Positions 3,801 to 45,800 of a stretch of 64,000 bases of DNA are shown here, one piece after another; positions within the stretch are counted from its first letter, which is position 1; every line of letters begins with the position of its first letter. A program made the position numbers and the translations under genes. The stretch covers positions 32,476,388 through 32,540,387 of the forward strand of contig NC_092670.1 of NCBI RefSeq assembly GCF_964355755.1, written 5' to 3'. The stretch comes from Antedon mediterranea. Taxonomy: Eukaryota; Animalia; Echinodermata. The notes below the pieces were generated by a model. It worked only from the letters and a program-made list of their open reading frames with translations, was not told where the DNA came from and did not search any database.

Positions 3801-6800
3801 CTACTTCTGTACAGTATGCAGGCTGAGGTGGTCACTAGCTAGGCCTAGACTATTCAGGCTAGGCTAGCAGGCCTAGCAAGATGTGAGGCCTAACTAGAAA
3901 AGTACAGTATATACAGGCTGTGCGATGTTTAAATAAAGTGTAAAATATAATTGTTTTCTATCAATAAAACAGTCGCTGCTTTAGGGGGAATGCACGTGCG
4001 TAGCTTGTCCCACACACAGCAGAATTCTTCACACAGCCATGATTGTGGCTTTGTGTGCTTTGTTGTTGTTAAATTGCGCCCTCAATGTAAGAAAATGATG
4101 ATGTCATCGGTTATTTTAAGCGTTCGTAAAATCGAGGGAACGTAAAACACAGGTTCTACTGTATTTTGTACGGTATACTATAGTAAGACATCAACCAGTC
4201 AAAACTTACTAGCTTGGAGAAAAAGGTTTATAAGGAAGACCATGCTCTAAAGAGTTGAAAATGATCTTAAATTTTCAACAATTATTACTTTTCTTATTAA
4301 GTTTAATTTCAACATACCAGTCAATGGTGCCTGCCTTTATTTTATCTGTAGGCCACGGGCCCATAGATTCACAATACATTACAGTAAGGTTGACTCTCTC
4401 CTTTTTAACGATACAAATAAATACTTTGACAGATTAACATAAGAATCTGTTAATAACTTTAACTTTGGATAAGAGGTATTACGCCAATAATTAGTACTCA
4501 GTAAGGTTTACCTTTCTGCCTTTCTGGACATACAAGACAAAGGTGATACTGATCTTCTATTTGTTGCCGGTCGCACATTTACTCTAATATTGACATTCAA
4601 GTTGTGTGACATTAGCAATATTGAACAAAAATAATATTGATATTGGAAATGTTTATTCATTGAACAACTATACATTATTTTTCAAGGTAAAAAAAAAAAA
4701 AAATGTAAAAGAGAGAGTTTGTGTGATTGTTCATGATACAACTTTTTTCCTAATTCATGGAATTAAACTGAGAAGATGGTTTTAAACTACATTTGAAACC
4801 CAGGGCATGTATTTTTGCTAATAGTATAGATATAAATATACAGTACTAGTCCAGTCTACAAAATACAAGTAAATTTCACGATTTTCATGTTTTTCTTGAT
4901 TGCCTAGACTTCTCTTTTCCACACTTGGTCCTATAGTACTACATTGGAGTCCATACATTACTTTGTTGAAACTTATGGTTGTTATGTGAATGGAATATAT
5001 AATAAATATTATACAGTATATATATTATTTTAAAGAAACATTTTTGGGAAATTGCAGACTTAAAAAGAGGGTGTCACGAAACCTAAGACCACGAAAGCTA
5101 AGACCCCCTAAGACCTAAGATCACGAAAGCTAAGACCAAAGAACTAAGATTACAAATATTTATCTTTCGCACCTGCCTTGTATCTTAACTCCCAACATTT
5201 ATTCTGAATACCACACCTTTAGAATTAGCACTTTTATGAAAAAGAATCACATTGATGATTTTACAGACGTTTTTCTCGCACACATACTGTTTGCGAATTT
5301 CGCATGACTAGCCTAACAGTACAGTAGGCCTACCCCATGTTCAATGTTTTTGTTTCTATGGAACGTCAAAAGAGCAAAAATTATATAGAGGGCTGTAAAC
5401 TCTGTGGAGTCCATCTACATCAGTGTGGATGGAACAATGTAAAACTAAAATTGTAATGATAATACTTAATAGTATAATCATGCTAGTACAAAAAAATAAA
5501 TACTCGCAAACAAAATTTAATTTAAAAATCATGATAATAAGTTGTTTTGTTTCGTTTTTTTTCTGATTTTATACTTGTACTATTATTGTTGCTCTTTTGG
5601 CGCTCCATAGAAACAAAAACATTGAGCATGGGAGGAGTTACAGTATACAAAGAAACACGTCTGTAAAATCATCAATTTAAAGGATTTATTTATTTGTTTT
5701 TATGTGTTTCTCCTTCTGAAAGTACTTATAAGTCCTAATTTTAAAGTGTGGTATTCAGGATAAAGTTAGTTAACAAATTTGGAGTCAAAATACAAGAAAG
5801 GCAGGTGTGAAAGAAAAACATCCTCTGAACCAACACAATGGAGTAAATATATACCAACAAACAACCCGTCAAGTTTGTTGTGAGTTTATCTATGTTTTGC
5901 GGTAGTATTTAATTATATTTATGGTAATAAATAAAACCTACTATGTTTAAAATTATGTATGGATAAACAAGTATTGTTTTTAAGCTGTAGTATATCTTAG
6001 AATTTGTAATCTTAGTTCTTGGGTCTTAGCTTTCGTGATCTTAGGTCTTAGGGGGTCTTAGCTTTTGTGGTCTTAGGTTTCGTGACACCCCTTAAAAAGA
6101 TTTTACTTTTACATTTATTCATTATCATCATGAGCATTTAATCATCATTATTTTCATTATAATAAATAATTCATTTATACTGTACAATTTATTTCAATCC
6201 ATGCCATGCACTGTTTTTTTTAACTTATGGTATAATTTCTAAGTAATCGTCATCATTGTTACTATATACTTTTTTGCTGTTTAGCTCCATTGTTGTCAAA
6301 TAGTCGTCAACTGTATCATCATATTCATCTATTATTTTCTTTTCTTCACTTGTTTGAGATTCATTGGTGACATCAAAGTTATAACCACAATTAGAATTTG
6401 TAAACTGCCCAAAAGGTTTTTTCATTTTTCTTTTTTTCATTGATTTATGTTCATGATTTTGTGGCTTTTTGCTTAATACTGATTGTCTACTTGTTGAAGG
6501 TTGATCATCATCATCATATGTAATGCTATAATAATATACATCTTCAAGTTGTTCTACTGTAGAGTTATAAGATTCATCATCTGCTTGATTGTCTCTCACT
6601 GTTTCTGTTGGTCTACTTTTCGAAGGTTGATAATCATCATCATCATCATCATCGTGAATGCTATAATACATGTGATCATTTACTATTGTGTCTTTTTTCT
6701 TAAAATGACACATTTCATTTTTTGCTTGAGATATTACTACTTCCATCTGTTTACTGGTTGAAGGTTGATCGTCATCTTTAATACTGTAATAAATTTCATT

Positions 6801-42800: not shown

Positions 42801-45800
42801 ACTTTTCGACAGGGTAGCTTGTGAGTACTCCCTCATCACCGAATATATACCGATAATCAGTACCGTTGTACGTTTTAGTTGAATTTAAAATACTGATGGT
42901 ACTCACAGTTTGCCAATTGATTTCATAAACATAATCAAATTCAACATCTTTTTGTACTGCAGTTGCTCTGATAATTATTAAACATGTCATAAGGCAAAGA
43001 TTCTGTAATGCCATCATTTCTTATTAAATCAATTTAAACTTCTTGAATAATTACATATGAAAAGAAGAAGTTGTCAGTGCGAGCCTCAGACAGCAATAAT
43101 TTAAACAAACAAAAAATTGTCTCAATTTATTATGTACTTCTATGACATGTTTCCTAAATCCTGTTCCTATATTGATTCATCTAACAATAGGTTTACTGTG
43201 TCATAGATGGAATGTACCAGAAAATGACAACAATTTTGAAATTATTAATTGTATCTGTGACCAAGAAATAGAATGCATTAAATACAGAAATATTGGATTG
43301 TTTATGTGAAAGTACATTGAACCATACACAAATCATTGCATATTCTCCCTCATTAGGGGTAGCTACGCCTCCTTGTAAATAAGCCTGCTTAGTTAATAGG
43401 TCACTTTACCTTGCGAAGATTAATATACAGGTAATTATTAATTAATGATTCCTTGGAAATAAATATAATAATATTATTAGGTAGGCTGAATAAATAAAAA
43501 TTTTTCTTCTTCGAGCCGAATCACCAGGTGTTTAGCACGCCATGCGTACCAGGCATTGACCATCACAAACAGTCTTTATCGCATCTATAGGGGAAGAATA
43601 GCAAATGAGGGTGCTATGTATGCATAGTTTAAATAGATTAGTTGAATTATTTCTTCAAGCAAGTTACATGGCGCGGAGTGTAAAACGTTGTCTCGTGGTG
43701 ATGTGGACAAATCTTTGTGAGTTTGAGTCCCAGTAGATGACTTTTATTATTTATCGCCAATCGCGAGTGTTGCCATTAGCAAATTACACAGGGACACGAT
43801 AATCACGCGAAATTTACTTAGTCAATATCATTGTACTTGAGGACATATACTATTTACGATCCTCGCAGCAGTATTCATGTGATGCAGTTTCAACCAATCA
43901 CGTATTTACATAGGCTTGTAATATAAACCGATATCTCCTTTTAAATTAGTTAAAATATAACATTTCAAATCCCCTTGAATGATATTTTTCTTGTGGAATT
44001 ATATTTTCCCTCGGCTTTGCTTCAGAGAAATATAGTCCCTCATGAAAAATATTCCCTTAGCAATATCTGTATAAGTAATACTTCATCATATGTATATCAA
44101 AGTTTAAATTGAAGTGTTCTATTTTCTTTAATTAAAAGATGTTTGATATTATGAACGCCATTTATATTTTGTTTTTCAGTTATTATGGGTGTTAATGTTT
44201 GCTACAATTCTTGGTTTGTTACTACAACGATTGTCGGCAAGGTTAGGGGTCGTCACAGGAATGCATCTGGCTGAGATCTGTTACCGTGAATATCCTCTTG
44301 TGCCACGCATCATTCTCTGGTTAATGGTCGAAGTTGCTATTATTGGCTCAGACATGCAAGAGGTCATCGGCACGGCGATTGCATTCTTCTTATTATCCAA
44401 TGGAAAGTGAGTAAAAATGATATAACTTATGATACATAATTGCATGATGGTAATTCTTTGTAGAATTTAATAGTCATCGTATAATTTATGGCTTGGTTAT
44501 CAATATCTTTTTGTTACGATTGGATCTAGAAAGTTTGCACAGACAGAAGTAGATATCTCAATAAAAATAAATGATAACAAAGAATAGTAGTTAATCATAA
44601 CTTTCACATTGTGAAACAAATTAATCAAACTGTATCTAGATTTCCTAACTATCTTAGGAATATTAGTGACGTGGTTCACAAGACAAACATACACAAGATG
44701 ATCTACATAAACAAAGTCTTATTACAAGTCTTTGGGAGTGGAGTTGTAATTTTGTCCTTAGAAAAAATCCTGACATGTGACGGGACCCTTGAACCCAGGA
44801 CCCTTAGAGTGGTAGCCAAGCATCATAACCACCAAGCCACAACTCCACTTGTTAATATAACATCTGTCTTAACCTTTTGGCCACTTGATTCGACAACACT
44901 AATGTTAATATTTAGTTGTTAAATTGTGTAATCATATGCGGATTACTTATTCTCCATAAACTTAACATTTTTGCAAACCTTTATAAACCTTTACATTAAA
45001 AGAAACTGATTGTTTTTTTACAGAATTCCATTATATGCAGGCGTTTTAATTACTATCACCGACACTTTTGTATTTCTGTTTTTAGATAAATATGGTGAGT
45101 ATAAACAAAATGCAGGCTTTCTTGGCAAATTTAATTCAGTAAGGGACTAATTATTAGTTTAAACTATATAGTCTGTGATAAATCAATGATGAAAACAATG
45201 TGTTACGCATTACGTTTTTTTACGAAAATATGGAAACTATCTACTGGTTCCATACTCCAAGATTCCAGAGGTCGAATAGAATATGGGCGGATAGGAATTA
45301 TATTCATATAATCATTGCATTTGCATATTGTTACTTAAGAGATCAGGAACCGGTTAAAAATCTTTAAGCCTAAAGAAACAAAAGCTAGTATTACAGGTAT
45401 TTTGCTTGAGATATAAAATGAAAACAAATTTGTTTTAGGTTTGCGTAAACTTGAGGCATTCTTTGCGATGCTGATTCTTACTATGGCAGTTACATTCACT
45501 TATGAGGTAGGTAATATTGGTTTGGTTGCATTCAGTGGCTTAACGCAGAGGCCTAAGGCCCCTGGTTTAGAACCCTAAGGCCCCTGGTTTAGAATCCTAA
45601 GGCCCCTGGTTTAGAACCCTAAAGTAGCCCTCCAACGCTGGAGGCCTCTGTGTTTTTAGCCTTTTTTTTTAAACATATTATATAATGCCTCCTTTGGGGC
45701 CTGCTGAGAGGCACCTGTAACCTCTAGGCCCATGGATTTAGCCAGTCAGCACGCATAGACATTACGCCACTGGTTGCATTCAATACAATGTTTTCTAAAG

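Follow-up and report, generated by a model that had tools for sequence, protein, structure and literature searches.

The 64,000-nucleotide stretch of Antedon mediterranea DNA analyzed here (contig NC_092670.1, positions 32,476,388 to 32,540,387 of the forward strand; hereafter the window) carries a tandem array of nine related gene copies, whose full-length members are predicted to be single-exon, type I, single-pass membrane receptors with immunoglobulin (Ig)-like ectodomains. All copies are antisense to an NRAMP2-like gene and lie within its third intron. On its sequence, the array is best read as a crinoid variant of the polymorphic Ig superfamily (IgSF) receptor clusters. Cnidarians, tunicates, and vertebrates have such clusters, and we found none described from crinoids in the literature. 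With moderate confidence, we propose that the receptors likely recognize variable non-self ligands (microbes or parasites) and signal or internalize via Tyr residues in their tails.

Stop-to-stop open reading frame (ORF) lists, made with the standard code in six frames, contain eight long frames on the minus strand, all of them within 6225-43020. A tblastn search of the copies against the window identifies these frames as mutual paralogues and finds no further ectodomain copy in the 64 kb. Together with exon mapping of the host protein, these results bear out the claim of a first-pass annotation that about nine genes form an antisense cluster in a 41-kb NRAMP intron. Its count of eight ORFs plus a tail remnant also stands, but only five of the nine copies (A, D, E, F, and H) are intact, the other four being damaged or partial. 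The copies form two subfamilies, I (A to D) and II (E to H):

6225-7859, minus strand: copy A, intact, 544 aa, subfamily I.
10365-12104, minus strand: copy B, subfamily I, ectodomain and transmembrane (TM) helix intact, in-frame stop at codon 469 within a tail of 15-bp repeats.
14177-15596, minus strand: copy C, with an ectodomain like that of B and a tail of A/E type.
17154-20337, minus strand: tail-only remnant of B/D type, with two broken 15-bp repeat arrays (17192-17583 and 19131-20337).
26127-27917, minus strand: copy D, intact, ∼596 aa, subfamily I, tail of acidic five-residue repeats.
31395-32894, minus strand: copy E, intact, 499 aa, subfamily II, database model P0001 (NCBI, UniRef).
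35340-36653, minus strand: copy F, intact, 437 aa, subfamily II.
37585-38037, minus strand: copy G, 5′ partial duplicate of F cut off early in the second ectodomain unit, 150 aa, no TM helix.
41449-43017, minus strand: copy H, intact, 522 aa, subfamily II, Thr-rich stalk of 21-bp repeats, one strict ITIM (immunoreceptor tyrosine-based inhibitory motif).

In the intact copies, each ORF runs uninterrupted from signal peptide to stop; "single exon" refers to the coding part, and introns may occur in the 5′ untranslated region. The signal peptides that had been claimed passed a hydropathy cutoff in A to D and were read by eye from the sequence in E to H. The stop in copy B is seen in the assembly, in a repeat region outside the read comparison described below. 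In the assembly, copy C has a frameshift near 14737-14764 that ends the protein at 289 aa, ahead of the TM helix. The tail remnant has the same terminal Tyr motif as D and shares its 3′ flank (79% over 320 nt); no ectodomain was found upstream of it. A 15-bp minisatellite encoding an acidic five-residue unit builds the B/D-type tails (10404-10855, 17192-17583, 19131-20337, and 26166-26719; ∼26-80 copies per array) and is a likely hotspot of unequal crossing-over and length polymorphism. We rejected the idea that the receptor frames are shadow-frame artifacts: where plus-strand ORFs overlap B, D, and the remnant, they are frames of the 15-bp repeats. Splicing to shared exons in the manner of protocadherins was likewise set aside on the evidence of the ORFs, in which each copy has a stop of its own.

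The ectodomain consists of three units, D1 to D3, which in copy F span residues ∼23-121, 122-223, and 224-309, followed by a TM helix at ∼337-360. Profile searches, AlphaFold models, and structure searches all predict Ig-type β-sandwiches for D2 and D3, so the Ig-like nature attributed to the ectodomains is supported for these two units; D1, the tip domain, keeps just part of the Ig signature. The B-strand Cys, C-strand Trp, and F-strand Cys of D2 and D3 are conserved in seven of seven ectodomains (C144/W162/C201 and C243/W256/C288 in copy F, with extra conserved Cys besides) and belong to a set of 44 columns that are invariant across the seven. No copy gave a Pfam match above the curated cutoff. 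Pfam also returned no Sushi match, and the second unit aligns to Ig domains. Folded alone, D1 is predicted with low confidence, and the lack of an Ig match in its fold search is no evidence of a new fold; it is likely a degenerate Ig tip domain. A homodimer prediction for the copy F ectodomain scored 0.01 with an uncertain partner fold, which speaks neither for nor against binding.

None of the seven TM helices contains an internal charged residue. The tails had been described as Tyr-rich, which holds for copy A (7.6%, 18 Tyr) but not for the other six (1.5-5.3%, against 6.7% in translated intergenic DNA); it is the context of the Tyr residues, not their number, that is enriched. We count 16 YxxPhi motifs where composition-preserving shuffles give 7.7 (p 0.0014), and 13 with an acidic residue upstream where shuffles give 4.2 (p 0.0002), p values that are generous since the copies share motifs. 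In A, D, E, F, and H, in the remnant, and, past its stop, in B, the last YxxPhi Tyr lies exactly 5 residues from the C-terminus; in C the distance is 4. This position is kept although several tail pairs cannot be aligned. An acidic YxxI/L/V motif of core-1 type is also enriched over shuffles, with a pattern chosen after viewing the tails. Known receptors with ITIM/ITAM-like tails had been offered as a comparison. The Tyr motifs of the array are nonrandom, but immunoreceptor tyrosine-based activation motifs (ITAMs) are found in none of seven tails, and strict ITIMs in two (A and H) vs 1.3 expected by chance. The tail of A carries three repeats of an acidic YYSI-type motif, its one strict ITIM, and a hemITAM-like motif at its end. 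This last motif also occurs in B and C, under a pattern from the Botryllus paper discussed below that was picked after the tails had been viewed; strict hemITAMs number zero in the tails.

Ectodomain identity among the copies is 34-79%, and the ratio of nonsynonymous (dN) to synonymous (dS) substitution between paralogues is mostly 0.4-0.9; by these measures, the ectodomains are constrained yet fast-evolving. The block comprising D3, stalk, and TM helix is nearly identical in E, F, and H, silent sites included, while the tips diverge: dS is 0.045-0.13 in D3 vs 0.41-0.71 in D1 and D2 (Fisher p 2e-11 to 4e-4), with identical tracts of 91-98 nt. Because silent sites are homogenized too, the block reflects sequence exchange and not selection alone. 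The tails have also been swapped between copies. B and C are ectodomain sisters, while the B tail matches D (E 3e-27) and the C tail matches A and E; in H, the proximal part of the tail is common with E and the end with F. The F/G pair is a mosaic as well, with 25 of 188 sites differing in the 5′ half of D1 and 6 of 245 in the flank. Positive selection was rejected as the cause of this tip divergence, since dS is raised equally (dN = dS = 0.105 in D1), and exchange with another allele or copy fits better. The birth-and-death turnover that had been proposed is supported. A retroposed founder of this single-exon family is plausible; single-exon coding is also the rule in sea-urchin Toll-like receptors (TLRs) (PMC3367398). 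Several intergenic stretches between receptor genes in 28000-44000 consist of very high-copy short repeats, whose summed contig depth reaches ∼1 million in sequencing run X2 vs ∼300 for unique DNA; they are possible duplication substrates.

Five sequencing runs cover the region, of which three were compared on 26800-44600 and two on 10900-15800. One run that was suspected to be RNA resembles the DNA runs in its coverage of introns and intergenic repeats; all were treated as DNA and are silent on expression. X2 and X5 match the window and may come from the source animal, and X1 is another sample of the same organism. The X1 differences considered are 40 of 182 and 40 of 48, at a depth of ∼10 and with paralogous contigs possible in places. 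Among them, 51 fall in genes, with 29 replacement and 2 silent differences in D1 to D3 and 13 and 7 elsewhere. After removal of one same-codon duplicate and three differences also present in X2, the ectodomain count at listed sites is 25 replacement vs 2 silent, a ratio with p = 0.05, 0.022, or 0.009 for neutral silent shares of 0.215, 0.247, or 0.28. The allelic polymorphism that had been anticipated is thus seen as replacement-skewed differences in one second animal. Overall, the X1 and window alleles are ∼1-2% different by the contig table. Low coverage of the F-G spacer in X1 was not taken as a sign that G is absent.

Copy C also differs between the two animals. A single X1 contig spans 14043-14971, 3′ flank included, and carries a net gain of 14 bases at the frameshift that places the ectodomain and membrane helix in frame, together with a net gain of 4 bases in the tail, after which the protein would stop at ∼377 residues. 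The window animal is therefore predicted to have a secreted or null form, and the X1 animal an anchored, short-tailed one. We rejected assembly error as the source of the frameshift since an X2 contig spans 14044-14837 without difference, X2 possibly being from the source animal.

Acidic YxxI/L motifs act both as Src-family substrates and as SH2 docking sites; YxxPhi motifs at the C-terminus bind clathrin adaptors as well. In the mechanism we propose, the D1-D2 tips would bind a variable foreign ligand, the acidic YxxI/L motifs, once phosphorylated, would bring in SH2 kinases or phosphatases, and the YxxPhi at the end of the tail would engage SH2 proteins or clathrin adaptors. New combinations of tip and tail, as well as tail-less or secreted forms, would arise by unequal crossing-over and gene conversion, and recombination with diversifying selection would keep renewing the repertoire. 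Being compact, single-exon, and replacement-biased, the array is directly amplifiable, genotypable, and expressible, and offers a handle on non-self recognition in a basal echinoderm. It also bears on the question of repeated origins of Tyr-motif receptor signaling on Ig scaffolds.

Vertebrate paired IgSF receptors (SIRP, CD300, Siglec, NITR, LITR) combine variable distal domains, a conserved membrane-proximal block, conversion between copies, and terminal YxxI/L motifs, and the crinoid array resembles them in each of these respects. It differs in its single exon and in having no charged TM residue for an ITAM adaptor; the sequence link is only the generic Ig fold, and the crinoid tip keeps only part of the Ig signature. 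The Biomphalaria PTC2/GRC cluster is likewise lineage-restricted and single-pass, with paralogues <50% identical, TM-less relatives, and replacement-rich alleles, but it is reported to lack known domains and to have far more divergent alleles and a mapped resistance phenotype (PMC7494358). Sea-urchin TLRs share with the array the single-exon receptor genes of an echinoderm, pseudogenes (about one quarter), and diversifying ectodomains (PMC3367398); they are, however, LRR-TIR proteins with a conserved signaling domain and hundreds of copies, whereas the crinoid array pairs Ig folds with short linear Tyr motifs.

The array also has likenesses in design to allorecognition systems such as Hydractinia Alr and Botryllus Fester/FcoR, in which allele-specific tips bind to the same allele, or to a partner allele, on other cells. 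We consider it unlikely that the array is such a locus. Feather stars are solitary and without fusion, an overall allele difference of ∼1-2% is modest for a histocompatibility marker, and the exon structure is unlike that of Alr. In favor of an allorecognition locus, the two C alleles differ in tail and anchoring, and the array is alike in design to Alr, a cluster of single-pass IgSF genes of high divergence that encode at most three Ig-like domains, a tip without canonical Ig residues, and Tyr-bearing tails that cannot be aligned, and that include numerous pseudogenes (PMC9546547). Each Alr domain, however, has an exon of its own, in contrast to the whole protein in one exon here (PMC9546547). 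The Alr tip is a well-predicted V-set fold where D1 keeps a partial Ig signature, and the crinoid array has neither the extracellular, partly FN3-like spacer nor the true ITAMs of Alr. Alr also controls allorecognition genetically. Botryllus FcoR, also an IgSF system of an invertebrate deuterostome, offers intergenic recombination, tail-changing alleles, and both acidic YxxI/L/V (core-1) and hemITAM-like motifs that the crinoid acidic YxxI motifs resemble (PMC12582321), but it has three Ig domains plus Sushi, undergoes splicing, and has Fester genes as its partners; we see none of this in the array. With one exon for the whole protein, no Sushi, no ITAM, and no charged helix, the array belongs to none of the compared systems (Alr, FcoR, PTC2, sea-urchin TLR), in agreement with the first-pass annotation, which recognized it as no named family. 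A likewise unlikely reading is that the array forms the core of an echinoderm polymorphic self/non-self system, in which single-exon cassettes would recombine variable tips, shared stalks, and interchangeable signaling tails, and alleles would switch among anchored, tail-less, and secreted forms. If true, histocompatibility or missing-self recognition in crinoids, and possibly in echinoderms more widely, would have a first molecular candidate, and the tip domain may be a new fold that arose from one half of an Ig domain.

In a broadcast spawner, gamete-surface recognition proteins may diversify under sexual selection or for species recognition, and the fast, replacement-biased change of the distal domains also fits proteins of this kind. 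We hold this reading to be quite unlikely: immune receptor arrays are a better match for the many paralogues, the swapped tails with Tyr motifs, and the frequency of pseudogenes.

A neural or epithelial adhesion or identity code of Dscam, Sidekick, nectin, or protocadherin type is improbable. The top profile and fold matches are indeed to NCAM2, Sidekick, IgLON, Dscam, and nectin-like proteins, but at 10-16% identity they reflect the generic Ig fold. Adhesion genes of the Dscam/Sidekick/nectin type are usually conserved across phyla; the crinoid family has four of nine copies damaged and no member from another named species among the best 150 of 563 profile matches, the remaining 413 of which could hide distant members. 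Improbable too is a largely redundant array under relaxed constraint, drifting to pseudogenes without diversifying selection, as the damaged copies, the breakage of C in two different ways in two animals, the equal dN and dS of F and G in D1, and the lack of an exact database model, at the tested starts, for seven of eight ORFs could suggest, in view of the five long open frames, the 44 invariant columns, a paralogue dN/dS <1 overall, the fixed terminal Tyr motif, and ectodomain silent differences rarer than neutral.

The profile matches come from a HMMER scan of 1.84 billion representative sequences (563 matches at E up to 0.001). Among the best 150, three are family members: copy E, P0003 (XP_071957072.1, 249 aa, A. 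mediterranea), and P0050 (133 aa, from a 658-bp ENA contig). The other rows among these 150 reach ≤32 bits per domain and are generic Ig-like repeats. In a tree without G, P0003 and P0050 branch between subfamilies I (A to D) and II (E, F, and H), on the side of II. P0003 lies on a 30.6-Mb contig, vs the window's 41.4-Mb contig, and the family is therefore not confined to the NRAMP intron; the lineage restriction that had been claimed stands among the best 150 matches, but nesting in NRAMP is not exclusive. The P0003 database model is without signal peptide and membrane helix and leaves the family sequence after D3; the model may be incomplete, or the copy may be damaged and mark a second cluster. 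Word-index searches, whether run with F or with an alignment of nine sequences, returned E alone, missing P0003, and are hence insensitive. Only E has a database model: exact look-ups of A to D and F to H, in 16 variants of start or fragment, gave no database match, although differently structured models would escape them. Annotation can thus overlook most of a family that is antisense in a host intron. We found no description of such a crinoid family in the literature, though gene lists of echinoderm genome papers could mention it, and the array is apparently undescribed.

The host gene belongs to the SLC11 family and is laid out as follows:

772-62636, plus strand: NRAMP2-like host gene, from P0154 exon mapping and a supporting Pfam Nramp match, with 12 coding exons inside the 64-kb window and the remainder beyond it.
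3177-44179, plus strand: NRAMP intron 3, after coding exon 3, 41,003 bp, GT-AG, containing the whole receptor array.

Residues 1-481 of P0154 (database name NRAMP2-like isoform X2, Antedon mediterranea) map exon by exon onto the plus strand of the window, with an exon 4 match that is 100% identical, and coding exon 3 (3054-3176) joins exon 4 (from 44180) directly in P0154. Coexpression with a phagocyte NRAMP had been suggested as a possibility. The antisense nesting is confirmed, but the functional tie is weak because a family member sits on another contig and the host is annotated NRAMP2-like. It is weakened further because human nested genes, two-thirds of them antisense, are mostly unrelated in function to their hosts (PMC4394429), and because nested pairs in Drosophila are less often coexpressed than neighboring genes (PMC3814207). 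We found no account in the literature of genes nested in SLC11 introns. Its location in NRAMP is probably incidental to the array, likely an accident of insertion at a tolerant antisense site.

Other elements lie in or near NRAMP introns. A Ty3/Gypsy-type long terminal repeat retroelement occupies 55346-62503 on the minus strand, in the intron after coding exon 11; its reverse transcriptase, RNase H, and integrase pieces are in different frames, its terminal repeats are ∼92% alike, and its gag-side ORF (60726-61481) gives a weak helix-hairpin-helix match (E 3e-4). At 49701-50117 on the minus strand, a frame without a Pfam match resembles the C-terminal end of a decayed ORF from a non-long terminal repeat retrotransposon. 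The start of an ORF of long interspersed nuclear element type, with an endonuclease domain, lies at 62967-64000 on the plus strand, in a further NRAMP intron, and leaves the window. Finally, NRAMP intron 2 holds a full-length 5S rRNA match (84 bits) at 2083-2200 on the minus strand, either an isolated copy or a 5S-derived element.

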